A stretch of 35,418 bases of DNA from an uncultured Bacilli bacterium (lineage in GTDB: Bacteria; Bacillota_I; Bacilli_A; RF39; UBA660): positions 1-35,418 of the forward strand of contig CANRLQ010000001.1 of NCBI GenBank assembly GCA_947631525.1, written 5' to 3'. Below are positions 4,746 to 30,789 of this stretch, in pieces; the stretch's first letter is position 1, and each line of letters begins with the position of its first letter. Both the position numbers and the translations under genes were made by a program. A model generated the notes under the pieces. It ran no database searches and was not told where the DNA came from. It worked only from the letters and a program-made list of their open reading frames with translations.

Positions 4746-4770
4746 TTTTTTATTTTTGGTTATATTTTTT

Positions 4771-5127: not shown

Positions 5128-5156
5128 AATAAGCCTCCTATATAAATTATATTAGT

Positions 5157-7798: not shown

Positions 7799-7890
7799 TT
7801 TATCACTTTCCTTTCATATAAATATATAATAATTATCGTCATATTTTTATTGAAGTACAATTATCCTCTTTACTATATGACTACACTATT

Positions 7891-7919
7891 ATTATAACTC
7901 CATTTATTCTTTTTATCAA
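7891..7919 (-). promoter_or_regulatory. near-consensus sigma-A promoter (TTGATA, 17-nt spacer, TATAAT) for the Flp-like pilin gene
   Basis: The reverse complement of 7914..7919 is TTGATA and of 7891..7896 is TATAAT, with an exact 17-nt spacer. It starts 20 nt after the tadC stop and leaves a leader of about 85 nt before ATG 7798. Confidence 0.6.
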
Positions 7920-7938
7920 TATTTAAGTGTAAAATACT

Positions 7939-9629: not shown

Positions 9630-9641
9630 TTTATTCCTCCT

Positions 9642-11884: not shown

Positions 11885-12286
11885 CTAATATGGTGTTTCT
11901 AATATTGCATCTATTTTGTTGTCAATTGTAAAGTCAACAACTTCATTTGCAACAGTAGAAGTTTGTTTTGATCTCACCCTTAGACTTACTTTAGGTGGAT
12001 ATTCACTAATATCATAAATATCTATAACATATGTATTTGATAAAGATGCATTTTCTGCAAATCTTCTAACAAATATCTCTGCAAATTTTTCTCCATCTAT
12101 ACTAATATTCCCTGTTTTTGCATATTCAGCTTGATCAATAGCATCATACATTGCTGCTTCAGTTGTTTCTCTAAGCAATGTATAATTTTGCTGATCTGTA
12201 TTAGTAATATTTTGGAAGAAATATATAAAAACTATAGATGTAACTCCGAGCATTAAAATCATGCTCCCCCAAAATGATTCTTTCAT
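11885..12286 (-). CDS. 133-aa prepilin-like / N-terminally anchored protein, cassette A
   Basis: MKESFWG is followed by SMILMLGVTSIVFIYFF. By eye it is about two-thirds identical to 18564..18965. It follows the giant protein gene with an 18-nt gap. Confidence 0.6.
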   Translation of the reverse strand: MKESFWGSMILMLGVTSIVFIYFFQNITNTDQQNYTLLRETTEAAMYDAIDQAEYAKTGNISIDGEKFAEIFVRRFAENASLSNTYVIDIYDISEYPPKVSLRVRSKQTSTVANEVVDFTIDNKIDAILETPY

Positions 12287-12304
12287 TTATATTTCCTCCT
12301 TTAC

Positions 12305-15300
12305 TTATTTCCCATTAGGATATGTAGCTAAAGTTGATGATGAAGAATATTTTTCATAACAACTTCTAAGAGTTGAAGTAGTATCTGTGCTTGAACAATT
12401 TCCTCCAACTAATATACCTTTATATTGTCCACGTAAGAAATTACTACTAACGCAAGTGTTGTCATCACATGTATAATCACTTTTTGTTGGTGTATATGAA
12501 TGTTCTTTATTATAATTTCTTATGCTTTTAATATCTTCTGGAGTTAAATTAATTGTGTATAATATATTTCCATCATCTTTATATAAATTATCAGCTTCTA
12601 CAGTTCCATTATTTGACAATCTTGTATGAATTTTATTTTGAACCCACCATAAATTTCGCCAATTATAACCTGGAAAACGACCTATATTCGTAGTATCATA
12701 TGAAGTTACTTTACCTGAATAAGTCATACCTGGAAATGGATCTTTTAAATCTATAACTCTATATACTATTTTTTTACCTCCATATGGGCAAGTTTGTTCT
12801 TCACAAACAGCTAACGCTTCAGCAATTTGTGATTCATTTGCTGTTGAAGTAGTAAGTCCTTTCTTAGCTAATTCTAATTCTAAACAATATTCTGGATTAC
12901 CCATATCTTCACACTCACCTTCTGGTGGACATCCAGGACATCTATATCTAGTTTCACATATTTCACCATTAGCACATACTTTTTTCCATATAACAGCTTT
13001 TGTTCCCTCTGGTTGTATTGATTTCCAACTACAACTATCTGTATTACATACACTATTACACATTTTATTGTAACAATATTCAAAATCATCAGAAGCATAA
13101 TTTTGATATTTATCTATTTCTTTGCTAAGATTTTTAGATTTTTCTTCAGCTTGTTTTAAAGTTACTGTATTTCCTCTAACATTTAAATTAATTTTTCCTT
13201 TTTCTTGTTCTACTTCGTCATTAATTCTTTGAATTAATTTATTTACTTCATCTTTTAATTTATCATAATCGTTAAGACTTATTCGTGCTTCCTCATTTCT
13301 AACTGTAACATATTCAAGTGATGAAACTTTAATTTGTTTTTTACTTTCAAATTCAGAAACAGATTTTTTTAATTTTTCTAATTTTTGCTTATTTTTTTCA
13401 TTTCTTTCGCTTTGATAACTAGTTTTACATATGCTGCTTTCTATTCTATCTGTAATATTTTCTAATGTTAAATTATTATGAGTTCTATCTTCTATACAAT
13501 CTTCATATTCTTTTATTTCAGTTTCTAATTTTGTTATTTCTTTTATTGCATCGTTATAAGACATTGTTTCATAATCAACTTGTATTTCTCTTTTTGATTT
13601 CAGTTTTTCGATATCTTTTTCTAATTTTTCAATATCTTTATTTAATGTTTCAATAACATTTTTAGCTTGATTAATTGATGAAATAACAATACGATGAACA
13701 TAATCTGTCTGGATGGTATAACGAAATTCATTTGATGAGTTAGTATTTCTTATTGCTTGATCATAGTCATTTTTTAAATTTTGTGTAGAACTTAATAAAT
13801 TTCTACTATTAAAGCAATCTGTTAAATCAACTGTTTGATGATTATATTCACATGTACAATGTTTATAATTTTCATTTTCATATTGTTTTTTATATTCTTC
13901 AAATTCTTCACTTGATAAATAACATAATTTAGTTTGAGCATCTAAGCAAGCAAGATTTGAATTACCACCATTATTGCCAGGCTCCCCACTACATAATAAT
14001 AGCACATCAAGATTTTCTCCTGCCATAGGTGAAGAACTTGGACAAATACAATTATCTTCTCCTCCTACTTCATAAGAACAAGTATAATCAGTTATCTTAC
14101 TTCCAACATTATTATCTATACCTAAATTTAAATTTAATTTCAAATAATATTTACCACTAGCATTTTTAGAAATTGCTAATGAACCTTCTTTTCTATTTTG
14201 AATTAAAGGAAGAACTGCATTAGCATCGTTATTTGTAGAAAAGAATCTACCAGTTTGATCAATCCAAGAATTCAAATTTGCTGGTAATTTAAACCAAGAT
14301 GTTTGTGACATAGAAATTGATGAAGTACCTACTGAGATATTATTTTGTTTCGTAGAACTTAAAACTATTGGACTATTTCCATATTGTTCATCAGTATAAT
14401 TAACTGTAGCACCATTTTGATAGCTACTGTAATAGTCATTAACTAAATTTGTATTTGAAACACTTCCACAAGTAGCCGTAGTTCCCACTGGATCTGGATT
14501 AACAATTGTACAGCTAGTATTGATTGTTATCTTCATTCTATAAGAAGATAATTTATCGTTCCAATTACTAGTTGGCCATTCAAATGAAGTACCAGGTTTC
14601 ATTTGTTTTTTTACATTACCTGGTAATATCAGAGTAAAAGTATCTTTACAATAAACATTACATCCACCAGTTGTTGTACTAACAAATCGTCCATAATAAT
14701 TTGAACGTTGGCCTAAACTTTCATCACAAGAATTATTATCTGTTTTTACAGTATAAACAGACTCAAGAACCATTTTTTTATTATAGTCATCTGTACACTT
14801 TAAATTATTTGTTTTAGTTTGAATTGAATTAGACATACAGCAAGAATTACAATAAACATTTGTATATTGACTTACTATTCCATCTAATCTTCCACTTAAT
14901 GTTGCATTTGTTGGAGATGTTAATGAATTATCATACCAAAACTTAATATAATTTTTTATATCATAATTTTGTACTTTACCAACACAGTCAACAGGTTGAC
15001 ATGAATATTGAAAACAATTGTTTTCATATCGACATAAATCTTCAGCTTGTGCATCACTATATTTTTTATCCGTATATTTTTTTATACAATCTGTAATCTT
15101 AACTTGCCCTCCAGTTATAGGATTAGTACAATACCTATTTGCTGTACAATATAAATCTTTACAAGTAGATTTTGCATTTGCCTCACTTTGACCTGCATCA
15201 ACATAATTTTCAACACAAGTAGTTATATCCATTCCCTTATTTATTGCTGAATCATCAGGACATAAAATTTTATCAGGTGGTGGTATAGCAGCTGATATAT

Positions 15301-16021
15301 CTATAATATTCATACCACATCCCACATCATAATCTTTAGATGTCTCTAAATTATTTTCATTACTACAAAATTCCTTAGTTTTATATTTAATTCCAACATC
15401 TGTAAAATTAGTATAAAAAGCCGCTAACATATCTGAATATCTACTCCTACGTTGTTCTCCACCTTTAACCCTAATTTTTGTAACATTTTTTATTGTGTCA
15501 TAATAAATCGTACCTGAATTACCATTCATAACATATGTAACAACAGGTTCAATAACAATACGATATCCTTTTTTAGCATGTGGTGATTCCTTTTTAGCTG
15601 GTTCACTCTTTTTATAACTAGATTCTCCAGTTTTTTTGAACCATTTTTTGGCATTTTTCCAATCATTCTTTTTAAACCATTCTTTTATTTTCTTGCTTGC
15701 TTCTGCATATTCGGTATTACCAACACCTTTAAGTACCCCACTACTTTTATCTAATATATTTTTATCACCCCAGTTTTTATTAGACCAATATTCACTATAA
15801 TATTTTTTATAACTAGCACCATTTATCCAATATAGTGTAACCTTAACAGTTAAGTGATTGGCATTATTGTACATACAAGGGCCAGAAACACTAGAACAAC
15901 TAGCTCCACTTCCACTTACAACGTCACTACCTTCACCATTATATATCGATGCTGAAACATTAGTATTGCCTATAAAAGCTAATAAAATAAATACAAATAC
16001 AAATTTACATATTTTTTTCAT
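12305..16021 (-). CDS. giant secreted cysteine-rich protein A (1238 aa), function unknown, adhesin or pilus-associated candidate
   Basis: Sec signal MKKICKFVFVFILLAFIGNTNVSA. I hand-counted about 51 Cys. It shares blocks with 18980..22333, for example YYGRFVSTTTGGCNVYCKDTFTLILPGNV, YTCSYEV and IVYRVIDLKDPFPG...RFPGYNW. Confidence 0.8.
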   Translation of the reverse strand: MKKICKFVFVFILLAFIGNTNVSASIYNGEGSDVVSGSGASCSSVSGPCMYNNANHLTVKVTLYWINGASYKKYYSEYWSNKNWGDKNILDKSSGVLKGVGNTEYAEASKKIKEWFKKNDWKNAKKWFKKTGESSYKKSEPAKKESPHAKKGYRIVIEPVVTYVMNGNSGTIYYDTIKNVTKIRVKGGEQRRSRYSDMLAAFYTNFTDVGIKYKTKEFCSNENNLETSKDYDVGCGMNIIDISAAIPPPDKILCPDDSAINKGMDITTCVENYVDAGQSEANAKSTCKDLYCTANRYCTNPITGGQVKITDCIKKYTDKKYSDAQAEDLCRYENNCFQYSCQPVDCVGKVQNYDIKNYIKFWYDNSLTSPTNATLSGRLDGIVSQYTNVYCNSCCMSNSIQTKTNNLKCTDDYNKKMVLESVYTVKTDNNSCDESLGQRSNYYGRFVSTTTGGCNVYCKDTFTLILPGNVKKQMKPGTSFEWPTSNWNDKLSSYRMKITINTSCTIVNPDPVGTTATCGSVSNTNLVNDYYSSYQNGATVNYTDEQYGNSPIVLSSTKQNNISVGTSSISMSQTSWFKLPANLNSWIDQTGRFFSTNNDANAVLPLIQNRKEGSLAISKNASGKYYLKLNLNLGIDNNVGSKITDYTCSYEVGGEDNCICPSSSPMAGENLDVLLLCSGEPGNNGGNSNLACLDAQTKLCYLSSEEFEEYKKQYENENYKHCTCEYNHQTVDLTDCFNSRNLLSSTQNLKNDYDQAIRNTNSSNEFRYTIQTDYVHRIVISSINQAKNVIETLNKDIEKLEKDIEKLKSKREIQVDYETMSYNDAIKEITKLETEIKEYEDCIEDRTHNNLTLENITDRIESSICKTSYQSERNEKNKQKLEKLKKSVSEFESKKQIKVSSLEYVTVRNEEARISLNDYDKLKDEVNKLIQRINDEVEQEKGKINLNVRGNTVTLKQAEEKSKNLSKEIDKYQNYASDDFEYCYNKMCNSVCNTDSCSWKSIQPEGTKAVIWKKVCANGEICETRYRCPGCPPEGECEDMGNPEYCLELELAKKGLTTSTANESQIAEALAVCEEQTCPYGGKKIVYRVIDLKDPFPGMTYSGKVTSYDTTNIGRFPGYNWRNLWWVQNKIHTRLSNNGTVEADNLYKDDGNILYTINLTPEDIKSIRNYNKEHSYTPTKSDYTCDDNTCVSSNFLRGQYKGILVGGNCSSTDTTSTLRSCYEKYSSSSTLATYPNGK

Positions 16022-16035
16022 GTATAAATCACATC

Positions 16036-16689
16036 CTATTTTAATTCATTTTTCTTATCATCTCTATATATAATTATACCACATACTACTATTATTAATG
16101 GTAAGATTATATAATAATATCTTTTATAACTATTTGTAATAATTTCAACCAATCTAGCCAATCCCTGTTTTTCAGCAACTGCTTCTTTTTCTTGTCTATT
16201 CTTTTCTAGTAAGTATTCATTTACTTTCTTTTTAAATTCAGCATCGGTAATGTTTAAATTTATCCATTTTCGACAATATTTATATTCTTGAATATCTTTA
16301 CATAATTCACTTTTATAGTATTTATTATAACTAGGTGTTTTAACATAAATAGTTCTTAACGAATCACTTATACAAACAAAACCTTTTGAATAAACTTCAT
16401 ATCGATACTCTTTGTTAGGTTTTAATCCTTTAACAGTAACATCTTTGTTTGAAGAATATATCTTACCATTTGAAGTATCTTTTATTAACAATTTTCCATT
16501 TAAATTAGTAAAAGTTATATCAAATGTAACATTATTATTAATTTCATTATAAGTATAACTATAAGCTACATTAGCAGATAATTTCTGAATTTCAGATATT
16601 TGTGAATCTAAACAATTTGCTGCTTTAATTTGATATGGAAAAAGTACTAATATAATTAATAGGAAAGAATTAACAAATATTCTTCTCAC
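16036..16689 (-). CDS. secreted FN3-like protein with a C-terminal TM anchor, cassette A
   Basis: I prefer the GTG start at 16689 (RBS GGAGGTG, and the -10 at 16722 leaves no room for the track ATG). It has a signal peptide and a TM anchor YYYIILPLIIVVCGIIIY. VTVKGLKPNKEYRYEVYS is an FN3-type strand signature. It is a paralogue of 23092..23739. Confidence 0.6.
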   Translation of the reverse strand: MRRIFVNSFLLIILVLFPYQIKAANCLDSQISEIQKLSANVAYSYTYNEINNNVTFDITFTNLNGKLLIKDTSNGKIYSSNKDVTVKGLKPNKEYRYEVYSKGFVCISDSLRTIYVKTPSYNKYYKSELCKDIQEYKYCRKWINLNITDAEFKKKVNEYLLEKNRQEKEAVAEKQGLARLVEIITNSYKRYYYIILPLIIVVCGIIIYRDDKKNELK

Positions 16690-16721
16690 AAATTGCACCT
16701 CCATACTCTACCTTAATATAG

Positions 16722-16730
16722 ATTATAACA
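16722..16730 (-). promoter_or_regulatory. extended -10 element TGTTATAAT inside cassette A
   Basis: The reverse complement of 16722..16730 is TGTTATAAT. It lies in the 58-nt gap between the 524-aa gene and the FN3-like gene. Confidence 0.4.
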
Positions 16731-16762
16731 TATTTTTAAAAGAAAAGAAACTAAAATTATAA

Positions 16763-18337
16763 TTATTTTAATTTATATCTGTAAATATTATTTCTAATAT
16801 TAAAAATTAAAGTAATGTTATTTGCTTTTTCTATTTCTTTATAAATTTCAAAATATAAATTTGAATCATTAACCATTTTAGGTTTAATAGGTTTGATTGT
16901 TTGATTCATAATTTTAGTTTCACCATTTATTGTATACTCTATACTACCATATTGATATACTAAATTTTCCAATTTTGAAAAGGTTAGCGGTAAATCTAAT
17001 GAATCAGAATCTACCTCACCATCTAATTTTAAGATTGTTTTTTCATAATTATCTGTATAACTTGGTACTAAATATTCATGTGAATTATAGATTATATTAT
17101 TTATATAATAATTATATCCAACATCCATTCTAGGTGAAATACCATATGAATCTATATATATTTTAAGATCTTTTACCAATTGATTATTTATTTCTAAAGT
17201 TTTACCAATACTTGATTCCTTTTTGTTATTAGAATTAAAGCTTTGAGGTTTAATTCTAATATTAATATAATTATTATTATAATTAGCAAATTTTAAAGTC
17301 ATCTTTTTATTTTTGTATTTTTTTGGTATTTCATATACAAGTAAATATTCGTTTTCTGTTTGACCTTTTATTTCTTCATTATTATAAGTATTTCCAATAT
17401 CAATCAAGTCTTTTTTATATTTTGTTGTATGAACAAAATTAATATCATTTACATTAAGAACAAATCGCTCAGTATTTAAACTACCTCTTTTATTACTATT
17501 GTTTTTTAATTTGAATTTAACGGTAACTATATAATTATCTGTTATTTTTCTATTTTTGTAATCAACATTTGTTATATAAACTTGTTGAGGTGTAAAATTA
17601 AGTAAATCACAATTAACCGATTCACCTAATTTATGAGCTCTATTTTTAACAAAGAAATTAAAATAGATAAAAATTGATAAAACAATTATGGTAAACAACA
17701 CAATAATATTGATAATAAGTTTATTTTCTTTATAAATATATTTAGCATTTCTAAGTTGTCTTTTTATATTTCTTTTTGTTTTATTTGAATCATAGTCTAA
17801 CTCAAATTCAAATTCTTCATTATCTTTTTCTGATATTTCAAAATTCATTTCTTTATCAAAGTCAAATTTTTTAACATCAAATCCTAATGCTCTTACTACA
17901 AAGAAAATAGAACTAATTGTTTGAAGAAGAAATAATACCAAACATATATCATCTATAATTTTTATAACTCTTATATCTACAACACCAATTTCAAGTGTTT
18001 TACATACAGAATATATATATAAATATATAAGTAAAATAAAAACATAAATTATTATATTGAAAATATAATATTTAATTGGTTTTTCTTTCCAATGTAACAA
18101 ATATATAATTATTGATATTAAGATTATTACAAATATAGGAATGATAAATATTAATGAATTAAATAATTGTTTAGTTAAATTAAATACTGATATAATTGAA
18201 CTAGATTGTAAATATTCATTAAAAAAATTTAAAATTGTATTTGTTTTTGTTAATAGATAAACGCTTAATATAGTAAGTATTAAATGAATTATTTTAAAAT
18301 ATTTTATTAAAAATTTATAAGGTTTTCTTAATACCAC
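16763..18337 (-). CDS. 5-TM membrane protein with an acidic cytoplasmic loop and a ~295-aa ectodomain, cassette A
   Basis: 524 aa with a GTG start and RBS AGGAGGG. I predict four N-terminal TMs, the loop EEFEFELDYD, a fifth TM and a beta-rich C-terminal domain. It is a paralogue of 23834..25417. Confidence 0.65.
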   Translation of the reverse strand: MVLRKPYKFLIKYFKIIHLILTILSVYLLTKTNTILNFFNEYLQSSSIISVFNLTKQLFNSLIFIIPIFVIILISIIIYLLHWKEKPIKYYIFNIIIYVFILLIYLYIYSVCKTLEIGVVDIRVIKIIDDICLVLFLLQTISSIFFVVRALGFDVKKFDFDKEMNFEISEKDNEEFEFELDYDSNKTKRNIKRQLRNAKYIYKENKLIINIIVLFTIIVLSIFIYFNFFVKNRAHKLGESVNCDLLNFTPQQVYITNVDYKNRKITDNYIVTVKFKLKNNSNKRGSLNTERFVLNVNDINFVHTTKYKKDLIDIGNTYNNEEIKGQTENEYLLVYEIPKKYKNKKMTLKFANYNNNYINIRIKPQSFNSNNKKESSIGKTLEINNQLVKDLKIYIDSYGISPRMDVGYNYYINNIIYNSHEYLVPSYTDNYEKTILKLDGEVDSDSLDLPLTFSKLENLVYQYGSIEYTINGETKIMNQTIKPIKPKMVNDSNLYFEIYKEIEKANNITLIFNIRNNIYRYKLK

Positions 18338-18533
18338 ACTATCCCTCCTAATTATAAATTATTATCTATTTTATCTAATTTATATATGTATTTGTTTCTT
18401 TTAAATTTTAATAAGTATTCCATTATATAATTTACGAATGAGTTTTTTCTAATATTGATACTTACATACTTTACTTGAAGTTTTTTAATATAACTTTGCC
18501 GACCCCTACTCTATTTACTATTATAAACTATTT

Positions 18534-18560
18534 AAAAAAAAAAGAAAAGTATTTTTTCTT
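18534..18560 (-). terminator. weak hairpin plus T-run after cassette B
   Basis: The minus strand reads AAGAAAA-AATAC-TTTTCTT followed by a T-run. The stem is almost entirely A/T, so it is weak. Confidence 0.25.
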
Positions 18561-18563
18561 TTT

Positions 18564-18965
18564 TTAATAAGGAAGTTCTAAAATAGCATCTATTTTGTTA
18601 TCAATAGTAACTTCTACTATTTCATTAGCCGCATTAGTTGATTTTGTCGCTCTAACTTGCAAACTAACTTTAGGTGGATATTCACTAATATCATATATAT
18701 CAATATAGTAATCGTTAGATAAAGAAGCAACTTCTGAATATCTTCTAACAAAACTCTCAATAAATTTTTCTCTATTAATTTTAACATTTCCTGTATTTGT
18801 ATAATTAACTTTATCTATTGAATCATACATAGCTGCTTCAGTTATTTCTTTTATCAATGTATAATTTTGTTGATCAACATTTGTAACATTTTGAAAGAAA
18901 AATACAAACAATATGGAAATAATTCCTAGTATCAATATCATCGATCCCCAAAATGATTCTTTCAT
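18564..18965 (-). CDS. 133-aa prepilin-like / N-terminally anchored protein, cassette B
   Basis: MKESFWG is followed by SMILILGIISILFVFFF. It shares DIYDISEYPPKVSL and TIDNKIDAILE with 11885..12286. Confidence 0.6.
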   Translation of the reverse strand: MKESFWGSMILILGIISILFVFFFQNVTNVDQQNYTLIKEITEAAMYDSIDKVNYTNTGNVKINREKFIESFVRRYSEVASLSNDYYIDIYDISEYPPKVSLQVRATKSTNAANEIVEVTIDNKIDAILELPY

Positions 18966-18979
18966 TTACTCATCTCTCC

Positions 18980-21900
18980 TTAATTATAACAATTATAAAA
19001 ATCTTTTTCTTTAGATGTACTACTCAATCCATTACAATTACCATTTTTATTATTAAGATTTTTTGATAGTATATTGATTTTATAATCTGTTAATTCACCA
19101 TGTAACAATTTACTTATACAAGCTGAAGAATCACTACTATTTAAACATTTTAAGTCAAAATTATCATAACTATTCTTTTCATTGTATTTTCTTATTGTTT
19201 TTATATCTTTTGAAGTAAGTTTTATTGTATAAAGAGGATTTTTACTATAAATTTTGCTTCCTTTACTATTTCTAGAATTTAATATTTTTTCCTTTACATA
19301 TTGTGAATCCCAGTTACTTCCAGGATATCTTCCATACAAGCTTGTATTACTAAACTTATTTGTTTTTCCATTTGTTTGTAACATTCCAGGAAATGGATTA
19401 TCTAAATCAATTGTTCTAAAGACAATACTGCTATTATAATTTGTTGAACATATAGCAGGTTCACATTCTCTTAAAACTTTATATAGATTTGCTCTATCAA
19501 TCGAATTAATATTTTTAGCTAAATTATTATCAGGCATATATCCATAATTTCTAAGTTTATTTATAACACAAATTTTAGGGTCTCCTGTTAATATTTTGTC
19601 ATTTGGGCAAAAGAAATTAACATCGCAGAAAGTCAAATTTCCATCACAATATTTATATTTAATATTCAATCTATCAGTAGCAACTGCTTCATTTTCCCAT
19701 TTACAATCACCGATGCATGTATTTTCACAAACAGGAATTGTTATATCAGAATCACAATAAGTTGCCTGTAAATCTGCACAGCTTTTATCACTACAACTAA
19801 ATGGTAAAATTTTGTCATAGTTCTTAGTACCAGATGGACACTTACAAACATCGGTTGTTGTAATATATGGTGCTACTTCATAATTACATGTATAATTACC
19901 TTGATTTACAATATCACCAATAATATTTGATGTACCCAAGTTAAAAACCTTTAATTTTAATTCATAAATAGTTGGAAAATCATCAGTAGAAGTTGATATA
20001 ACACCTTTACCTCTATCAAAGGTATTTATGTTTGGATAAGTAAGTATTTCACCACTTATTCTATTATAATATCTATTTACATTTTCATTCAATTTATATG
20101 TTATAACTCTATTTACAGAAACATTTCTATCTGCTGTTGTAAAACCATTCCATCCATCTGTAAAATTAGTTAAATCTTTCGCAATATCCAAAGAACCTTT
20201 ATACCAATGTTTTGATTTTTCCTCATTTACTGTACTACCTGCTTCTATTTGAACCGAAGGATTTTGATTGTTATTGAAGAAATCGCTAGGAGTAAATTTA
20301 TAACTACGACAATCTCCATCAGCTGTACTTCCTTCTCTAATGATAATCTTACATTTTTCTTTTATATTTATTTGAAGTGGATATGTTCCATTTACTGTTG
20401 GCCATTCAAAATAATTTCCACGTGGTATTATTTTAGAAACATTACCTGGAAAACTTAGATTAACTGTCTCTAAACAATATATATCACAATTACCAATTGT
20501 TTTTACATGTCTACCATTATATTTTGATGAACCTTCCTCACATGTATTATCTTCCACTTTTACTGATTCTTCATTATATGAAGCTTCATTATTCTTATCA
20601 GTATTAACACAAACTAATGAATTTGTAAGTGACTTATTACTTAATTTAACATCAAAACAACTTATTGGGCAATATCTTTGCTTACATTCCAAACTTGCTT
20701 CATTTATATCTACAACATCATCATCTGTTGAAGCATTAAGCTTATTTTTTATACAATCTTGATAATCCTTATCAGTTCTTCTATGATATTTACCATAATC
20801 ATCAATCGTTGCACATGGTGCATAACAATTATCCACTTTACACATATCAAGTGCTAATTGTGGTTCTATACCTTTTTTAATATTATCTTTATAACAATCA
20901 CTTATATTAGTTTTATTATTTGGATCTGAAGCTACAGCTTCATCATTCATACCATAAACACAAGATTTACTTTCTGTACAAGTATCGGCTATACATATAT
21001 TCTTAGCATCATCAAAACTAGGTTCCTTAGAACAACATTGTCCATTTTTTGCCATAAATGCCCCTGTACATTTATTAGTATAGTTTTGATTAACTAGAAA
21101 GTATCCTCCTTTGCAAGATGGATTCCAATCCGCAGTTGTATCATTTATTGTACACTTAGTATTATTATCAGTCATATGATAACCAGCTGCACAATATAAT
21201 TTTGTATTATCATATGCATAACAATATGGATAAGCTCCATTTTTACCAACTGCATATCCTGGTGGACAAACAAATTGGTCAGTTCTATCCAGTATACATG
21301 TACGTGTCCCTGAGACAAAAGTATAACCTTGTGGACAATTAGGCTTTACCCTACAATAACCTGTATCTGAATTATATTCATATCCAGATGGGCATTTTCT
21401 TTTTGAAGCATTATCTTTATAACATGTTGTTCCACTTTTTTGCCATCCACTCGAGCAAGAATATGTACATGAAAGTTTAGTAGCATCCCAACTTGTTGAA
21501 TATGTTGTATGTGAACAACATCTATTATTAGAATTATCACCAGAATTATGACATAACTTTCTAGATACAGATCCCCCATTATATCCCGCTGCCGCACAAT
21601 TAGCATAAACTCCTGCTGAAACTGAATGATATGTTGTAGATGATGTTGTTTGATAACAGCTATTACCACTTTTGTTCCATCCACTTGCACATGAGCATGT
21701 TTGAGTAGCATTTTTTGTTTTTCTACAAGTTTTTGCAGAACTATTCCAAGAAAATCCATCACCATTACATGTTGGCTGTACTCTACACCAAGTATTATTG
21801 CTATTCCAGCTAGTTCCACTAGGACAAGTAGCTGTACTAGAATATCTACATGCTGTACCAAGATATTGACCACCACTATTACATGATACTAAATTATTTG

Positions 21901-22333
21901 TAATTAAACATGTCCCACCACCATTTACAGAAGCAAAAGAACCTGCACTACAATTTATATTAGTTTTACTTACACCAACACAAGTAGTTCCACTAAGTAC
22001 ATAAGCAGTTGATGGACAAAAATATTCTTTATCATACATAGTTACTGGTGGATTATTAAATTCTTCATCAACACAACTAGTTATATTTAATTCCGATTTT
22101 GTTTGTGTATCAGTACAAAATATTTGTGAAGTTTGTTCACATTCTTCAGAAGAGTCTCCTAACCATATTAGACCTACACCATAACCTTTACTGCTATCAA
22201 TCAAATTATCTAAAGAAGCAACCCCACTAACTGAACTTAAAGAAAATGAAGAAAATTGTGTTTTTTTAGAATCGTAATACATATAATGTGAAATAGCATC
22301 TACATTTAATTCAAAGTCACTTTCTTTCATCAA
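18980..22333 (-). CDS. giant cysteine-rich protein B, main body (the frame stays open upstream to 22432; its N-terminus is in ORF 22402..23082)
   Basis: 1117 aa from the track, with no signal peptide. I hand-counted about 71 Cys. It contains 13 C-x-x-G-aromatic...C repeats plus the shared blocks YNGRHVKTIGNCDIYCLETVNLSFPGNV, YTCNYEV and IVFRTIDLDNPFPG...RYPGSNW. Confidence 0.75.
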   Translation of the reverse strand: MMKESDFELNVDAISHYMYYDSKKTQFSSFSLSSVSGVASLDNLIDSSKGYGVGLIWLGDSSEECEQTSQIFCTDTQTKSELNITSCVDEEFNNPPVTMYDKEYFCPSTAYVLSGTTCVGVSKTNINCSAGSFASVNGGGTCLITNNLVSCNSGGQYLGTACRYSSTATCPSGTSWNSNNTWCRVQPTCNGDGFSWNSSAKTCRKTKNATQTCSCASGWNKSGNSCYQTTSSTTYHSVSAGVYANCAAAGYNGGSVSRKLCHNSGDNSNNRCCSHTTYSTSWDATKLSCTYSCSSGWQKSGTTCYKDNASKRKCPSGYEYNSDTGYCRVKPNCPQGYTFVSGTRTCILDRTDQFVCPPGYAVGKNGAYPYCYAYDNTKLYCAAGYHMTDNNTKCTINDTTADWNPSCKGGYFLVNQNYTNKCTGAFMAKNGQCCSKEPSFDDAKNICIADTCTESKSCVYGMNDEAVASDPNNKTNISDCYKDNIKKGIEPQLALDMCKVDNCYAPCATIDDYGKYHRRTDKDYQDCIKNKLNASTDDDVVDINEASLECKQRYCPISCFDVKLSNKSLTNSLVCVNTDKNNEASYNEESVKVEDNTCEEGSSKYNGRHVKTIGNCDIYCLETVNLSFPGNVSKIIPRGNYFEWPTVNGTYPLQINIKEKCKIIIREGSTADGDCRSYKFTPSDFFNNNQNPSVQIEAGSTVNEEKSKHWYKGSLDIAKDLTNFTDGWNGFTTADRNVSVNRVITYKLNENVNRYYNRISGEILTYPNINTFDRGKGVISTSTDDFPTIYELKLKVFNLGTSNIIGDIVNQGNYTCNYEVAPYITTTDVCKCPSGTKNYDKILPFSCSDKSCADLQATYCDSDITIPVCENTCIGDCKWENEAVATDRLNIKYKYCDGNLTFCDVNFFCPNDKILTGDPKICVINKLRNYGYMPDNNLAKNINSIDRANLYKVLRECEPAICSTNYNSSIVFRTIDLDNPFPGMLQTNGKTNKFSNTSLYGRYPGSNWDSQYVKEKILNSRNSKGSKIYSKNPLYTIKLTSKDIKTIRKYNEKNSYDNFDLKCLNSSDSSACISKLLHGELTDYKINILSKNLNNKNGNCNGLSSTSKEKDFYNCYN
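21026..22018 (-). repeat. coding array of about 13 cysteine-bounded C-x-x-G-[YWF] modules (EGF / ephrin-receptor-like in look)
   Basis: Examples are CPSGTSWNSNNTWC, CNGDGFSWNSSAKTC, CASGWNKSGNSC, CSSGWQKSGTTC, CPSGYEYNSDTGYC, CPQGYTFVSGTRTC, CPPGYAVGKNGAYPYC, CAAGYHMTDNNTKC and CKGGYFLVNQNYTNKC. The array is absent from paralogue A. Confidence 0.7.
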
Positions 22334-22401
22334 ATAAGCTAATTCAGTTGGTGTACCAAAATAATATTTTTTTTCGGAATTAGAACTACTATTATATCCG
22401 A

Positions 22402-23082
22402 TTAAATTAATGGTTCTACTAATATATAATAATCATTTATACAATAATTAGATAAATCTCTATTAAAAGTTTGTTTTACATATAATTTTATACTGGTTTG
22501 ATTATAATTACCTTCTTTATCATAAACTATAGAATCAAAATATTTTATAACACTACTCCAATCTATAGAATTATTTTTATAATTTAAAGTAATACCTGTA
22601 GGTAATTTAGAAATATTATTATATGAATCTAATGCACTAACACCTTTTTCTTTATAACCATTAAAAATATTACTAGTATCTAATGTTAATTTTGATTTTT
22701 GACCAGATATATTATAATATACATTTTGAGTTTTTGATTTTTCATAATAATAATCCTGGCTATATCCAAATTGATTACCAAATGCTGAAACTAAACTTAC
22801 TCTAAATCCTAAAGCATTAACACTTTGTATCCACTCATTCGTTTTACTTGAATCCATATTAGTTACTGGGGAATTTGAAGTACCAATATTTAATTTATAT
22901 GGATCATTACTTTTTTCTGTCGATTCACTATCTTTTACATCATCTGATCTATTTGTTTCAGTCTTTTCTTCTCTATATAAAATTGAATCAATTTTATAAT
23001 TAGTACTTATATTGAAACTATATAAAGATATGACAAGAATAAAACAAAAATACAAAGTTAAGATTGTTAATAGTTTCTTCAT
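22402..23082 (-). CDS. N-terminal fragment of giant protein B (signal peptide or anchor plus first domain)
   Basis: The N-terminus is MKKLLTILTLYFCFILVISLYSF. The C-terminal DYYILVEPLI aligns with GYRIVIEPVV of protein A (aa ~152-161). The next frame continues LIGYNSSSNSEKKYYFGTPTEL, matching MNGNSGTIYYDTIKNV in A. Confidence 0.65.
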   Translation of the reverse strand: MKKLLTILTLYFCFILVISLYSFNISTNYKIDSILYREEKTETNRSDDVKDSESTEKSNDPYKLNIGTSNSPVTNMDSSKTNEWIQSVNALGFRVSLVSAFGNQFGYSQDYYYEKSKTQNVYYNISGQKSKLTLDTSNIFNGYKEKGVSALDSYNNISKLPTGITLNYKNNSIDWSSVIKYFDSIVYDKEGNYNQTSIKLYVKQTFNRDLSNYCINDYYILVEPLI

Positions 23083-23091
23083 TGTTACCTC

Positions 23092-23739
23092 CTACAGAAT
23101 TCTATCTTTTTGATCAAGCTTATAAATAATAATAACTAAAGAAATTATAATAAATGGAAGAAAAATAAAATAATAACTAGTATAAATTTTTATTAAATAA
23201 TATCTAACTTTCTGTAATAATGTTTCTGTTTCTTCAGGTTGTTCTTCTATACTAGGTTTTATACTTTCTTTGTATTCATCAACTTGCTTTTCAAATTTGT
23301 CTAAACTGATATTAACTTCTTGCCATTTTTGACATAATTTATATTTTTCAATTCCATTACATAATTCATTTTTATAATATTTATTATAATTGGGAAATTT
23401 GACATGTATTGTTCTAACTTTTCTATCACTACATACATTTGAAGGATATACATTAAAAACATACTCCTTACCAGATTTAAAATTATTTATAGTTAAATTA
23501 TCTCCCTTATAATATAAATTTCCATCTGAAGTATTTTCTATAACAAACCTACCATATAAATTGTTAAATGTTATATTAAAAATAGCTGTATCATTACTTT
23601 CTTTATAAGTATAATAATAATTTATGTTATTTGATAATGTTACGTAATTATTAAGCATATCATCTGAACAATAAGCCTTTATCCTAGATGGAAATAAAAT
23701 AACTATCAACAAAAAGCTTAAAAAATATACTTTTTTCAT
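23092..23739 (-). CDS. secreted FN3-like protein with a C-terminal TM anchor, cassette B
   Basis: I prefer the ATG at 23739 (RBS GAAGGA), because the -10 at 23772 makes the track GTG at 23763 implausible. It starts MKKVYFLSFLLIVILFPSRIKA, contains LTINNFKSGKEYVFNVYPS, and carries the TM anchor YYFIFLPFIIISLVIIIY. Confidence 0.6.
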   Translation of the reverse strand: MKKVYFLSFLLIVILFPSRIKAYCSDDMLNNYVTLSNNINYYYTYKESNDTAIFNITFNNLYGRFVIENTSDGNLYYKGDNLTINNFKSGKEYVFNVYPSNVCSDRKVRTIHVKFPNYNKYYKNELCNGIEKYKLCQKWQEVNISLDKFEKQVDEYKESIKPSIEEQPEETETLLQKVRYYLIKIYTSYYFIFLPFIIISLVIIIYKLDQKDRIL

Positions 23740-23771
23740 TTTATCAAATCCTTCGTATCCCACTATAATTT

Positions 23772-23780
23772 ATTATAACA
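23772..23780 (-). promoter_or_regulatory. extended -10 element TGTTATAAT inside cassette B
   Basis: The reverse complement of 23772..23780 is TGTTATAAT, immediately downstream of a strong terminator. Confidence 0.45.
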
Positions 23781-23790
23781 AAAAAGTAAT

Positions 23791-23828
23791 AAAAAAAAAA
23801 TACAATTTGGAGTTTAAATTGTATTTTT
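23791..23828 (-). terminator. strong rho-independent terminator after the 527-aa membrane protein gene
   Basis: Perfect 13-bp stem (aaaaatacaattt / aaattgtattttt) with a 7-nt loop, followed by about T10 on the minus strand. It starts 5 nt after the TGA at 23834. Confidence 0.7.
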
Positions 23829-23833
23829 TACGT

Positions 23834-25417
23834 TCATTTTACTTTATACCTATATATATCATTTCTTATATTAAAATTCAATGTAATAGAATCGGCTTTT
23901 TCTATCTCTTTGTTTACTTCTATATAAAACTCATTTTCATAATTTATTTTAGTAGGGTTAACTCTCCTAATTGTTGAGTTAAAAATTTTTGTTTCACCGT
24001 TTATTTTATACTCTATAGTAACAAAATAATTAATAAAATTATATAAATTTTTTAAATTTGGATTTTTATTATCGCCATCATAAACAACATTACCAACTAA
24101 TTTCATAATAGTTTTTTCATAATTATCTGTATAGCTTGGTACTAAATATTCATATGATTCATACATAATACCATCTAATGATTTAAAATCATAATAAACT
24201 GGCATTTTACTATTTATTTCAACTGAACTAATATTAATAGTTGCATTATTAACAATATCATTATTTATAACTAATTTATCATTTAATTCTACTTCTTTAT
24301 TAACACTTTGAATATTTAATTTTTTTGGATTAATATCTACTTTTATTTTTTTATTACTTCCAATATTATATATAAGTACCATTTCTTTATCAACATACTG
24401 ATTAGGAATTTCAAATACCATTATATAATCACTATAATGTTTCATATCAATATTTTGATCTTTATAAATATTTCCTATATCTAATAAGTCATTAGAGTAT
24501 TTTTCAGTATGATTAAAAGGTATGTTATTTACTAGTAATTGAAATTTTGATTGACTTAAGTAACTATCATTTGAATATTTACTTATTGCTTCCAATCTAA
24601 CTACTACAAGTGTATTATTTGTTATTATATTTTGATCATATTTTTGATTTGTTATAAAGGCATCATCAACTTTAATATTTAATGTACCTATATTAAAAAC
24701 TTCACCAACTTTATAGACCTTATTAATCACATTAGAATATAAATAAATAGATACCCCTATAACAATTATAAAAATTAAAGCCCCTGTTCTTATAAAAAAA
24801 CGATTTTCTTTATATACATACTTAATATTTCTGATATTTCTTTTTATATTTCTTTTTGCTTTATTAGTATCAACACTAACATCAAATTCAAATTCTTCAC
24901 TTTCTGTCCTAGAAATATCTAATTCTAAATCTTTACCAAAATTAAATTTTTTAACATCAAATCCAAGTGCTCTTAATATAAAGAAAATAGCACTTATAGT
25001 TTGAAGAATAAATAATATTAGTGATAAATCATCAATTGCTTTTAGTATTCTTATATCAACTACACCATTTTCAAGTATATTACATATAGAATATATGTAC
25101 ATATAACAACCTATAATTGATATATAAACAACCATGTTAAAAATATAAAAATGTATAGGTTTATGCTTCCATTTTAATAAATATATAATCATAGCAATTA
25201 AAATTATTACAAAAATAGGAATAATAAATAATAATGGATTAAATAATTGTTCTGTTAAATTAGATGTCGATATCAATGAACTAGATGTTGCATATTCATT
25301 AAAAAATGATAGAATATTATTTGTTTTTATAACCAAATAAATACTAAGTATAGTTAGTATTAAATGAATAAATCTAAAATTTTTAATCAGAATTTTATAT
25401 GGTTTTTTTAGTACCAT
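23834..25417 (-). CDS. 5-TM membrane protein with an acidic cytoplasmic loop and a ~295-aa ectodomain, cassette B
   Basis: 527 aa with RBS GGGGGA. The N-terminal 230 aa are about two-thirds identical by eye to 16763..18337. It shares EYLVPSYTDNYEKTI and the tail NIRN.IYRYK.K. Confidence 0.65.
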   Translation of the reverse strand: MVLKKPYKILIKNFRFIHLILTILSIYLVIKTNNILSFFNEYATSSSLISTSNLTEQLFNPLLFIIPIFVIILIAMIIYLLKWKHKPIHFYIFNMVVYISIIGCYMYIYSICNILENGVVDIRILKAIDDLSLILFILQTISAIFFILRALGFDVKKFNFGKDLELDISRTESEEFEFDVSVDTNKAKRNIKRNIRNIKYVYKENRFFIRTGALIFIIVIGVSIYLYSNVINKVYKVGEVFNIGTLNIKVDDAFITNQKYDQNIITNNTLVVVRLEAISKYSNDSYLSQSKFQLLVNNIPFNHTEKYSNDLLDIGNIYKDQNIDMKHYSDYIMVFEIPNQYVDKEMVLIYNIGSNKKIKVDINPKKLNIQSVNKEVELNDKLVINNDIVNNATINISSVEINSKMPVYYDFKSLDGIMYESYEYLVPSYTDNYEKTIMKLVGNVVYDGDNKNPNLKNLYNFINYFVTIEYKINGETKIFNSTIRRVNPTKINYENEFYIEVNKEIEKADSITLNFNIRNDIYRYKVK

Positions 25418-27549: not shown

Positions 27550-28773
27550 CTAATTTTTTCGTAATAACAAACATACACACTCAACATGATATGTATATGT
27601 AAACATATCAAAAGGTGTTATTTCAATCACTTCATAATAATCTTTTAATACTTCTAAATCTCTAGCAAGAGTTATTGGATCACATGAAACATAAACAATT
27701 TTTTTAGCTTTTGAATTAATTAAATAATTAATTGTTTTTTTATCTAATCCACTTCTAGGTGGATCTACTATAACACTATTAAAATCGTCCTTAATTTTAT
27801 CAATTTTTGAAGCATCTAAACATTCAAAAGTAATATTTTTTATATTATTTATTTTTTTATTATAATTTGCATCATCTATTGCAAACTTATTTATTTCAAT
27901 TCCTTTAACACTTGATACATAATTACTAATATATATTCCAATTGTTCCAGTACCGCAATATAAATCTAATACCTTATCATTACTATTAGGTTTTAAGTAG
28001 TCAAGAACTTTATCATATAAATTTTTAGCTTGAAGTGTATTAACTTGAAAAAATGAATCAGGTGATATCTTATATATGTAATTACCTATTTTATCTTCAA
28101 TAAATCCTTTACCAAATAGTACATAATATTTTTTATCTTGATAAATAATAATATTATCAACTACATCTTTTAAATTTTCTAAAAAGTATTTTTCATTTAT
28201 AGAATCTTTTGTTTTTAAAATTATCATTTTATCATTATTATAATTAGAAACTCTAATAACAACTTCATAAACATTATTTAAATTTATTTTTTTTAATTTT
28301 TTTAATATATCGTTGATTACTGGTAAAGCTATATAACATGTATCAATATCAATAATATCAAAACTTTTTTTAGCATAATATCCTATTTTATTATCAACAT
28401 GTAAAGTTATTTTATTTCTATAATTTTTATTATTATTACCTACAATTGGTTTAATTATATGTAAAGGTAGACTAGTAAATTTATCAATAATTTGTCTAAT
28501 CTTATTTTCTTTATAAATAAGTTCATCAGGGTATGCTAAATGCATCAAATCACATCCACCACATTTTATAAAATATGGACAAATAGGTTCTACTCTTTTA
28601 TTAGAAGTTACAAAATATTTTGTAACTTTTCCTTCCATAATTTTTTTATTTTCTTTTAATATTTCGACATCAACTTCTTCTGAAGGTAAAGCATTATAAA
28701 CAAAAATGGTTTTATTATTAATTTTGCCTATTCCTCGACCTTGATGATCTAATCTTTCTATTTTTACTTTCAT
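27550..28773 (-). CDS. rlmCD: 23S rRNA (uracil-C5)-methyltransferase, RumA/RlmCD family
   Basis: TRAM-like N-terminus; Fe-S cysteines CPYFIKCGGCDLMH; SAM motif LDLYCGTGTIG; also VDPPRSGL, VYVSCDP and the tail FDMFTYTYHVECV. I prefer the ATG at 28773 after the GGAG. Confidence 0.85.
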   Translation of the reverse strand: MKVKIERLDHQGRGIGKINNKTIFVYNALPSEEVDVEILKENKKIMEGKVTKYFVTSNKRVEPICPYFIKCGGCDLMHLAYPDELIYKENKIRQIIDKFTSLPLHIIKPIVGNNNKNYRNKITLHVDNKIGYYAKKSFDIIDIDTCYIALPVINDILKKLKKINLNNVYEVVIRVSNYNNDKMIILKTKDSINEKYFLENLKDVVDNIIIYQDKKYYVLFGKGFIEDKIGNYIYKISPDSFFQVNTLQAKNLYDKVLDYLKPNSNDKVLDLYCGTGTIGIYISNYVSSVKGIEINKFAIDDANYNKKINNIKNITFECLDASKIDKIKDDFNSVIVDPPRSGLDKKTINYLINSKAKKIVYVSCDPITLARDLEVLKDYYEVIEITPFDMFTYTYHVECVCLLLRKN

Positions 28774-28797
28774 AATTATCTCCAAAATTTATATTTT

Positions 28798-29232
28798 TTA
28801 TTTTATTTTTATTTTAGTTTTATTAGTATACAAATTACTAGATAATGAATTATTTGATATGTTTTTCTTTTCATTAAATTTTTTAATTAATTTTTTATGA
28901 TATTCATTTAACTGTGAAACCACCATATCACTTTTAATTAAATATGATGATTTTGGAACAACATTTAATACTGTAATTATTTTTTTTAATTCATAAGCAC
29001 TCATTAAATATCGCCCACAAATACTAGAATAATTTCTTACAAATTCTTCCATATGATCAAGCTCAATATATTTAGAAAAAATTTTTATAATATCTTCATT
29101 TTTAGAAAAATTTTCTACTGACATAAAATAATAAAAATCTGTCCTATTTAATTTTACACAAGCATCATCTGATAATTTCATTAATTCATCATAAGAAATT
29201 ATAGTTTCTTTTTTATACTTATCACTACTCAC
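28798..29232 (-). CDS. hypothetical protein (144 aa)
   Basis: ORF only, with a GTG start and a weak RBS. It lies 12 nt upstream of the methyltransferase gene. Confidence 0.4.
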   Translation of the reverse strand: MSSDKYKKETIISYDELMKLSDDACVKLNRTDFYYFMSVENFSKNEDIIKIFSKYIELDHMEEFVRNYSSICGRYLMSAYELKKIITVLNVVPKSSYLIKSDMVVSQLNEYHKKLIKKFNEKKNISNNSLSSNLYTNKTKIKIK

Positions 29233-29325
29233 TACTTAAACACATCCATTCATTTATTATTTCTATCTATATTTTATCATATATTTCAATATTTTGGAAA
29301 TAATAGAAATAAATGAGGGATACGT

Positions 29326-30789
29326 ATGAAAATAGAAAAAAGTATTGAAAAAAATATTAACATCATTAAAAGTGCCTATGGTAATAGTAATGATTTAGTA
29401 AACAGAAATATAAATATTGGAAGAAAAAAAATTGCTTATGTCTACTTAGAAAGTGTAAGTAGTGATGATAAAATAAGTGATTTTTTAATGAAAAATATAA
29501 GTAGTTTAGTAAAAGAAAATAGTCTAAATCCTTTTAAAGACTTATTTAAAAATTTAAAAAATACTATTTATAATAGTAATTTATCAACTACTAATAATTT
29601 TGATGAATTATATTATAAATTATCATCAGGATTTACTTGTATACTAGTTGAAGGTTTTGATGAAGTAATTACTATTGAAACTAGGTCTATATTAGATAGA
29701 GGAGTCACTGAATCAGCTACCGAATCAGTATTAAGAGGTCCAAAAGATAGCTTTACGGAAAATCATGAAAAAAATTTAGGTTTAATTAGAAAAAGAATTA
29801 AAGATCAAAATCTATGGTTTAAGGATTTAAAAATAGGAAGAAGAACCAAAACAAAAGTTACAATTAGTTATATTCAAGATATAGCTTTAAAAGAAAATAT
29901 TGAAAAAATTGAAAAAGATTTAAAAAAAATAGATATTGATGGAGTATTAGATAGTGGTTATATAAGAGAATTCTTAACTACTAATACAAAATCAGCTTTC
30001 CCACAAATGATAAGTACTGAAAGACCTGACTTAGTATGTGGTTCTCTTTTAGAAGGAAAAATTGTAATTCTTGTAGAAAATAGTCCTTGCGCACTAATAT
30101 TACCAGGATTATTAATTGATTTTTTACATACAGCAGAAGATTATTATCAAAAACCAATTAATATAAGCTTAACAAGAATACTTAGACTTTTAAGTTTTGT
30201 TCTTACAATAATTACACCTGGATTTTATATTGCTGTCACGACGTGGAATCAAGAGGTAATACCAAACGAATTATTAATATCACTATCAATTCAAAAAAAT
30301 GGTGTTCCTTTTCCAACAACCTTAGAACTAATGTTGATGATAGCCATTTTTGAAATATTACGTGAAGCTGATATAAGAATGCCTAATACAACTGGTGCAT
30401 CTATAAGCATCGTTGGAGCCTTAATTTTAGGTGAAGCTGCTGTAAGTGCAGGAGTCGTTTCACCTATTGTTATAATAGTTGTTGCTTTTACATCTATATC
30501 AGGTCTTTTATATACAGATGTAGATTTTATCAATGGAATTAGATGGTGGAGATTAATATTTATTATATTCTCAACTTTGCTCGGTTTTATTGGTTTAATT
30601 ATAGCTTTACTCATATTTATAGTAAGAATATGTAGTATTGAATTTTTAAATACACCTTATACCGTACCATCAAGTCCTATTTTCCCTAAAATACTTGGAG
30701 ATTCATTTATACGAATATCTAGAACTAAACAAAAAGTTAGGGCACCTTATTTAACACATAATAAAAAGAGAATGGAGGAACATAAATGA
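29326..30789 (+). CDS. spore germination protein, GerA (A subunit) family
   Basis: 487 aa with a soluble N-terminal region followed by 4-5 C-terminal TMs. It is the first gene of an A-C-B operon. RBS GAGGGA. Confidence 0.8.
   Translation: MKIEKSIEKNINIIKSAYGNSNDLVNRNINIGRKKIAYVYLESVSSDDKISDFLMKNISSLVKENSLNPFKDLFKNLKNTIYNSNLSTTNNFDELYYKLSSGFTCILVEGFDEVITIETRSILDRGVTESATESVLRGPKDSFTENHEKNLGLIRKRIKDQNLWFKDLKIGRRTKTKVTISYIQDIALKENIEKIEKDLKKIDIDGVLDSGYIREFLTTNTKSAFPQMISTERPDLVCGSLLEGKIVILVENSPCALILPGLLIDFLHTAEDYYQKPINISLTRILRLLSFVLTIITPGFYIAVTTWNQEVIPNELLISLSIQKNGVPFPTTLELMLMIAIFEILREADIRMPNTTGASISIVGALILGEAAVSAGVVSPIVIIVVAFTSISGLLYTDVDFINGIRWWRLIFIIFSTLLGFIGLIIALLIFIVRICSIEFLNTPYTVPSSPIFPKILGDSFIRISRTKQKVRAPYLTHNKKRMEEHK

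Follow-up and report, generated by a model that had tools for sequence, protein, structure and literature searches.

The analyzed DNA (hereafter the window) is a stretch of 35,418 nucleotides from an uncultured Bacilli bacterium (the complete contig CANRLQ010000001.1 of assembly GCA_947631525.1), and the subject of this study is a cysteine-rich repeat array that is encoded there on the minus strand (21026..22018). The array belongs to the open reading frame (ORF) B (18980..22333, minus strand), which as listed begins with a TTG start, encodes 1117 amino acids (aa), and combines the array with a conserved family core (B about 474–1117). Its paralogue A (12305..16021, minus strand), a protein of 1238 aa with a Sec signal peptide, has no hairpin modules. 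Both genes are part of a four-gene cassette that is duplicated in tandem (11885..25417) and lies directly upstream of a Tad-like filament operon.

Residue 106 of ORF B begins at 22018 and residue 436 finishes at 21026, and the array between these residues was recognized by motif counts, segmentation, a hidden Markov model (HMM), and an alignment of its two halves. Its 331 residues include 32 cysteines, with serine, threonine, glycine, and asparagine being abundant. Segmentation by hand resulted in about 14 cysteine-bounded units of 19–31 aa, each of which has two cysteines and consists of a C...C span of 10–17 residues followed by a short linker. Seven of the 14 are canonical C-x-x-G-[YW]-x(5-10)-C units (starting at B215, 293, 314, 333, 356, 381, and 407), and the units of the N-terminal half (B106–292) are mostly degenerate, as exemplified by CPSTAY.., CSAGSF.., CNSGGQY.., and CPSGTSW... 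As a null model for motif counts and cysteine gaps, we used 20,000 composition-preserving shuffles of the array. The strict motif C..G[FWY] was seen 7 times versus 0.35 expected, the loose hairpin motif 13 times versus 0.9 expected, and the coefficient of variation of the cysteine gaps was 0.41 versus 0.91 after shuffling; none of these values was reached in any of the 20,000 shuffles. A module HMM that had been built from other proteins, without the modules of B, found four units in B at 11.7–17.5 bits plus two weak ones, with a total of 20.4 bits for B versus 7.5 bits for the best of 500 shuffles, and it detected no module in paralogue A. The tandem repeat array is real and statistically solid. 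A preliminary description of this DNA had placed about 13 tandem modules here; its coordinates were right, and all nine peptides that it quoted are present.

Sequence similarity connects the N-terminal half of the array with the C-terminal half. Their Smith–Waterman score was 124 versus 49.5 ± 8.8 for shuffled sequences (z = 8.5, reached in 0 of 500), and the modules pair one-to-one between the halves, such as CPSGTSWNSNNTWCRVQPTC in the first block with CPSGYEYNSDTGYCRVKPNC in the second. The array therefore represents a duplicated block of about six modules. Block 1 (B151–292; 21458..21883, minus strand) comprises 6–7 mostly degenerate modules, and block 2 (B293–433; 21035..21457, minus strand), which is the best-predicted part of the array model described below (pLDDT 52–70), comprises six well-formed ones. 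As the DNA of the array shows no tandem repetition, the block duplication must be old, and a recent DNA-level tandem duplication as the source of the array is ruled out. A 176-aa ORF on the same strand but in another frame also lies within the array (21346..21876); it has the look of a side effect of the biased composition and not of a gene.

Paralogue A is homologous to B across B442–860 and B868–1116, and the hairpin motif does not occur in it at all. In the colinear alignment of A and B, the array drops in between A271 (..DITTCVE) and A282 (NAKSTCKDLYC..), and judged by this alignment, it is a clean insertion relative to A, in agreement with the module insertion that the preliminary description had suggested. 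Conversely, A contains a coiled-coil-like insertion of ~250 aa (A about 740–985; 13067..13804, minus strand) with weak SMC/TrlF-type matches, which has no counterpart in B, where only eight residues are found at that site. This insertion may be an alternative spacer module. A second cysteine motif, (D/N)-I-T-x-C-[VI]-x(10-20)-A-x(3)-C-x(3-4)-C, recurs in A (about 266–340), in B (about 84–91, 474–503, and 520–555), and in the family. The part of B that carries this motif in the core model described below has a predicted local distance difference test (pLDDT) below 50 and is only partly helical, and the place of the motif relative to the central domain varies among subfamilies.

We modeled the array with AlphaFold2 as B95–445, using an alignment of 10 rows of non-orthologous arrays. 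The mean pLDDT was 47 and the predicted template modeling score 0.22, with the best part (B294–394) at pLDDT 52–70. Pairs of 3–5-residue strands are the only secondary structure in this model, and in 9–10 of the 14 units, such a pair lies between the cysteines, strand 1 starting at the aromatic residue and strand 2 ending at the closing cysteine. The low-confidence model shows strings of short β-hairpins, no globular packing, and no sign of a single globular domain, but at this confidence, it does not prove a rod. With the array model as the query, Foldseek obtained no PDB match at E≤1e-3. The non-significant top matches were tandem-EGF proteins and viral fiber shafts, with EGFR, TNFR-family, and LRP2 chains appearing as well, and because of the low confidence of the model, these results are uninformative. 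The cysteines of the array are spaced by 8–16 residues and do not form any CxxC, the only closer arrangements being a C-x-C at 213/215 and two CC doublets. We infer that every hairpin would be closed by its own disulfide. The hairpin layout corresponds to that of the C5–C6 hairpin of EGF domains (cEGF) and of the CxxGYxLxGxxxxxC hairpin of CCP/Sushi domains. The core of B (B437–1117, modeled with a 50-sequence alignment) reached a pLDDT of 71.6, with a β-rich domain (B556–826) at about 90.

An exhaustive HMMER search yielded 288 relatives of B at E≤1e-3, all of them via the core (B474–1117). The preliminary description had regarded the array as present in only one paralogue, which is true of the two paralogues in the window but does not hold for the family, as arrays of at least four hairpins occur in 12 of the 131 long family representatives (about 9%). 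The array carriers are always the longest members, with up to 16 hairpins in P0027 and P0029, and the hairpin consensus among the relatives is CPSGYTxxGxxC[YK]K. In 10 of the 10 relatives with recognizable landmarks, the array falls within the central domain, flanked by "PGN..F.WP" and "NRYYN"; all 13 loose hairpins of B are located upstream of the central domain. The arrays at these two sites are nevertheless alike in sequence (array-to-array BLAST E = 1e-5). At the array site of B, the closest full-length relative, P0002 (BLASTP E = 2e-71, phmmer E = 4.9e-63), has a 345-aa insert that is cysteine-rich but degenerate. Neither whole B nor a di-module profile retrieved any match in a word-indexed homologue search; as every later match of this tool had 700 aa or less, the search probably covers shorter proteins only.

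A profile of ten arrays led to 37 further proteins (P0155–P0191, with E down to 1e-31) that carry 3–15, often 6–15, CPSGYTLSGTTC-type units in unrelated contexts. Of the 37, 35 are from prokaryotes or metagenomes and have bacterial signal peptides or anchors. The matches include N-terminally anchored 500–700-aa proteins from metagenome-assembled genomes (MAGs) of Firmicutes/Bacilli, a protein from Agrobacterium sp., a Saccharibacteria protein with a pilin-like N-terminus, TraN, and two eukaryotic cysteine-rich proteins, one of which is a Chromera oocyst wall protein. The secreted or membrane-anchored bacterial proteins among them use the same unit as B within different host proteins, with the units of B being more degenerate. 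Pfam labels only few of the 37, namely as cEGF (27.8–40.9 bits) or Sushi (38 bits), in each case by summed partial matches, and most are unlabeled. Judging from these sequences, the CPSGY-type two-cysteine hairpin is a widespread bacterial extracellular repeat that is uncurated and becomes labeled in domain databases only via accidental partial cEGF or Sushi matches. At the locus of one of these proteins (P0166, on a contig of GCA_016648615.1), the gene of the unrelated hairpin-array protein is directly followed by a 174-aa thioredoxin-family gene, whose product may be a dedicated disulfide oxidoreductase for hairpin-array proteins.

The family to which A and B belong consists of proteins of about 1,000 aa that share core motifs, of which B carries PGN..F.WP, NRYYN, CxCPxGT, and IDLxNPFPG...PGxNW. 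A Sec-type N-terminus is present in 119 of 128 long members, and the cysteine count of the mature part is even in 97 of the 128, which fits secreted, disulfide-bonded proteins. An LPXTG motif or another C-terminal anchor was found in 0 of the 128, and no Pfam or NCBIfam domain was found in the family. A genome scan with a trimmed C-terminal alignment gave 40 family loci, nearly all from uncultured Bacilli or Firmicutes MAGs and a few labeled Muribaculaceae or Oscillospiraceae. They come mostly from gut samples, such as those of water deer, rabbit, and human.

In cassette 1, the gene order is that of a 527-aa protein (23834..25417, minus strand) with hydrophobic, membrane-like N-terminal segments recognized by eye and with synteny in the loci L002 and L003, a 223-aa partner protein (23092..23763, minus strand) with a hydrophobic stretch near each end, a 226-aa ORF together with B, and a DUF5411 (PF17424) protein (18564..18965, minus strand; 156.1 bits versus a 30-bit cut-off). 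Cassette 2 has the same order, with a 524-aa paralogue of the 527-aa protein (16763..18337), likewise with hydrophobic, membrane-like segments, a 222-aa paralogue of the partner protein (16036..16704), A, and a second DUF5411 protein (11885..12286, minus strand; 164.6 bits versus the same cut-off). Four proteins of the window were looked up in sequence clusters, and each of them (A, the 527-aa protein, GerA, and one DUF5411 protein) was alone in its cluster.

The cassettes are followed by the Tad-like type IV filament genes (7565..11834, minus strand). These begin with a CpaB/RcpC-like gene (11001..11834, minus strand), whose 28.8 bits for CpaB remain below the 71-bit cut-off, and a secretion ATPase in two ORFs (10579..11001 and 9642..10637, minus strand) that matches PF00437 (T2SSE) with 86.8 bits versus a 24.9-bit cut-off. 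Two membrane proteins follow (8727..9629 and 7939..8727, minus strand), which were assigned by position only and have no T2SSF match, and then a 77-aa Flp-like pilin candidate (MKEAAGEANMTVITIVLIAIVLG...; 7565..7798, minus strand) with four cysteines, which was identified by eye and has no Pfam match. The next two ORFs, of 139 aa and 151 aa (7122..7541 and 6654..7109), have pseudopilin-like hydrophobic N-termini and no Pfam match. A prepilin peptidase did not turn up in the window. L002 and L003 have the gene order in common with the window and an ATPase that is 71–80% identical to that of the window; they contain two or three of the big paralogues, some with an array and others with none, and one DUF5411 gene only. 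In gram-positive gut bacteria, predicted operons of the type IV pilus or type II secretion system (T2SS)-like kind are reported to include DUF5411 (Nat Commun 2022, PMC9523054). The combination of a CpaF/VirB11-type ATPase, DUF5411, and adjacent large adhesin-like proteins is common to those operons and Tad/Flp pili on the one side and to the locus described here on the other. The differences are that the large cysteine-rich proteins here have no internalin-like or other Pfam domain, that CpaB is sub-threshold, that the TadB/C-like proteins have no T2SSF match, and that a prepilin peptidase was not seen.

On the whole, we are inclined to regard the array as a disulfide-stapled hairpin spacer or variable surface in an adhesin-like secreted family that is encoded beside a Tad-like operon, which we consider probable but far from assured. 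The region would be a string of about 14 mini-modules, each a short β-hairpin bounded by two cysteines, with a family consensus unit of C-P-S-G-Y/W-x(3-6)-G-x-x-C and a subsequent linker of 5–10 residues. It would have grown within the gene by the duplication of the ~6-module block, would then have diverged, and would have kept the codon usage of its host. It sits where the N-terminal domain of a large cysteine-rich protein gives way to the conserved core. It may serve as an extended, disulfide-stabilized, protease-resistant spacer or as a variable surface, and it would thereby set how far and in what manner the N-terminal domain of a pilus- or surface-associated adhesin-like protein is displayed. 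The relatives would use other inserts, namely a coiled coil elsewhere in A and hairpin arrays in the central domain of others. An effect of the array on the binding specificity or reach of B, as had been suggested in the preliminary description, is plausible.

Several points weigh against the spacer or variable surface. ORF B as encoded has no signal peptide, and as the ATPase of the locus is split as well, the system is possibly in decay. What connects the big proteins to the filament is co-location only, and one examined hairpin-array protein lies outside any pilus locus. With respect to the hairpin geometry and the disulfide pairing, the array model is of low confidence, and from the spacing alone, disulfides between neighboring units (gaps of 6–13 residues) are equally possible. 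No thiol-disulfide oxidoreductase was identified in the window, and Foldseek did not find any match of the core model at E≤1e-3 in the PDB and BFVD.

The lack of a signal peptide relates to the integrity of gene B. Upstream of B, the 226-aa ORF (22402..23082, minus strand) has a signal-peptide-like N-terminus and probably represents the N-terminal domain of gene B in a diverged form. Its stop codon TAA is at 22402–22404, where the frame of B is already open (frame junction at 22402..22432, minus strand). As the B frame is open from 22432, one 1-nt indel in 22402–22432 would yield a single protein of 1,368 aa. The end of the 226-aa ORF, ..NYCINDYYILVEPLI (...YYILVEPLI), resembles the family motif GYRIxIEP, in the form Y-x-I-x-V-E-P, and both P0002 and, though weakly, the family N-domain HMM align colinearly on either side of the junction. 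Only the fused product of the two ORFs has an even number of cysteines (72) in its mature part. Judged by these sequence features, ORF B probably corresponds to the 3′ portion of a longer gene that starts at 23082 and was broken by a frameshift. The 226-aa ORF has no similarity to the roughly 220-aa partner proteins and was therefore rejected as a third copy of them. Programmed −1 frameshifting is unlikely, as the junction UUA-AUU-UAA is by our own reading not a canonical X XXY YYZ slippery site.

The identical junction is also present in a short-read contig of the ENA (L041; ERZ27060504 NODE_53823, 1217 bp), possibly from the same sample as the window, and is therefore not a one-off homopolymer error. 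In L041, the initial 203 codons of gene B (100% identity) run into a Toprim (GyrB/ParE-like) coding sequence, and the contig looks like a low-coverage assembly chimera.

As the frameshift cuts the array ORF off from the signal-peptide ORF, this copy may be newly inactivated. It is thus quite possible, though on balance we would not expect it, that gene B is a recent pseudogene in this genome, with the frameshift near 22402–22432 removing the signal peptide and the N-domain and the degenerate N-terminal units being signs of decay. Besides the junction itself, the high frequency of signal peptides among the relatives of B and the second broken gene at the locus would fit inactivation. The ATPase consists of overlapping ORFs of 140 aa and 331 aa versus a single 466-aa ORF in the intact L002 orthologue; about 5 aa are missing, the frame changes near 10633–10642, and the ATG of the second ORF is located just ahead of the Walker A motif. 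However, an ORF of 1117 codons is still open in a genome of 25% GC, and any inactivation must have happened very recently, unless the break is tolerated or bypassed. Moreover, the N-domain homology is weak (4.6 bits with the HMM and a BLAST E of about 0.3), and the ENA contig, which is perhaps from the same sample, is not clearly independent.

Instead of acting as a spacer, the hairpin modules themselves could be a ligand-binding or antigenically variable face whose number and sequence tune specificity and not reach. The lengths (4–12 residues) and sequences of the inter-cysteine loops vary widely, with only the cysteines, the glycine, and the aromatic residue being fixed, the number and position of the arrays differ between paralogues and species, and each genome contains several paralogues, all of which would suit such a face. 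We nevertheless consider this unlikely, as there is no ligand, no conserved pocket, and no confident three-dimensional model, and as A has a coiled coil, which is more typical of a spacer, where others have arrays. The degenerating N-terminal half of the array of B also speaks against strong selection on single units.

It is very improbable that the array is an EGF, CCP, or furin-like block that was acquired from a eukaryote and mimics host extracellular domains, although the array had appeared eukaryote-like in the preliminary description. With whole B, no Pfam match was obtained at E≤1. With the array, the best Pfam match was cEGF (PF12662), the C5–C6 hairpin of EGF-like domains, whose C-x-x-G-[YF]-x(4-8)-C signature is common to the array. 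B106–436 scored 11.2 bits and B293–436 19.2 bits, both below the cut-off of 26.6 bits, whereas more regular bacterial arrays of the hairpin unit reach 27.8 bits. DUF4215 scored 14.4 bits. The EGF, GCC2_GCC3, Ephrin_rec_like, Furin-like, and Sushi models of Pfam gave nothing at E≤10, with the limitation that the HMMER filters may discard very weak matches, and the only EGF-family reports at E≤10 were cEGF and FXa_inhibition fragments. A PDB sequence search with B gave no match. When the di-module profile was compared to all PDB sequences, only an ~18-residue hairpin of the type Y-x-C-x-x-G-Y-x-L-x-G-..-C was matched; CCP domains were on top, with the N-terminal hairpin of a snake C-type lectin (snaclec) and the EGF domain of factor Xa also in the list, and none of the matches was individually significant.

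The likeness to EGF and CCP is motif-level only and concerns one disulfide-type hairpin rather than an EGF, CCP, or furin-like domain. EGF-like domains have about 40 aa and six cysteines (C1–C3, C2–C4, C5–C6), whereas the units of the array have 19–31 aa and two, follow each other head to tail with linkers of 5–10 residues, and are not preceded by the N-terminal EGF sub-domain. Sushi/CCP domains (PF00084) share the hairpin Y-x-C-x-x-G-Y-x-L-x-G-x(4-5)-C with the di-module profile, but they have roughly 60 aa, four cysteines, a conserved Trp, and a 20.7-bit cut-off, and the array gives only hairpin-length matches. The two cysteines of the CCP hairpin pair with other cysteines and not with each other. 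With the furin-like/EGFR, TNFR, and GCC2_GCC3/ephrin-receptor-like rods, the array would have in common the principle that tiny disulfide-closed β-hairpins are strung into an elongated extracellular element; however, the modules of those rods carry CxxC or 2–3 disulfides, and the array has neither a CxxC nor a significant structural match.

The nucleotide composition was also examined. The GC content rises locally to 34.5% (versus about 27%), but the excess is wholly at codon position 2 (0.59 versus 0.36) and therefore reflects the content of cysteine, glycine, serine, threonine, and alanine; a foreign origin could thus be ruled out as the cause of the local GC rise. At codon position 3, the GC content of the array (0.109) is like that of the rest of B (0.106) and of A (0.103), and the synonymous codon choice is alike. 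As the two-cysteine hairpin is common in bacterial proteins, with several unrelated bacterial families using it, the array is no sign of a eukaryotic origin, and a eukaryote-to-bacterium transfer is not supported. The motif-level likeness, the two eukaryotic matches of the array profile, and the non-significant Foldseek matches, which are mostly tandem-EGF proteins, would be in favor of an acquisition, but they are opposed by sub-threshold scores for every eukaryotic domain model, by two cysteines per unit instead of six or four, by host-like codon usage, by the overwhelmingly prokaryotic or metagenomic profile matches, by the internal block duplication, and by the negative Foldseek search at E≤0.001. 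That the cysteines bind metal ions in a zinc-ribbon-like manner in a cytoplasmic protein can practically be set aside, as the cysteines are 8–16 residues apart and without a CxxC pair, as the family overwhelmingly bears signal peptides, and as even cysteine counts and the hairpin context fit disulfides, even though ORF B as called has no signal peptide and some similar array proteins receive spurious zinc-ribbon Pfam matches.

Going beyond a spacer or variable surface, the ~1,000-aa proteins could be the adhesins at the tip or on the surface of a Tad-like filament in gram-positive bacteria and form, together with the three cassette partners, an undescribed adhesin system with an unrecognized core fold. 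Plug-in hairpin and coiled-coil modules at alternative sites would then vary reach and surface, and the arrays could bind host EGF/CCP partners. This extended scenario is speculative, and we would give it only a small chance. If the proteins are adhesins, their inserts would illustrate compactly that surface proteins can alter length and surface by swapping small modules. Three kinds of inserts are seen: hairpin arrays at two sites and a coiled coil at a third. More interesting than the repeat itself are the unannotated protein family and its cassette, as this sizeable family of uncultured gut Bacilli has no match among solved or viral-predicted structures and is encoded beside pilus-assembly genes.

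Further genes adjoin the cassettes and the filament operon. Downstream of the filament genes, the region 2023..5543 encodes a TrbL/VirB6-like protein (27.7 bits) and a 353-aa protein whose N-terminus resembles a signal peptide, as well as two membrane proteins of roughly 115 aa that are paralogues of each other and end with C-I-x-C-F-I-N-x-x-C; it may be a second, conjugation-like or secretion module. On the other side, the locus is flanked by genes for a tRNA U5-methyltransferase and GerA (27550..30789). These are also neighbors in L042, which is from a different organism and has no pilus cassette there, and the cassette region may therefore be an insertion.

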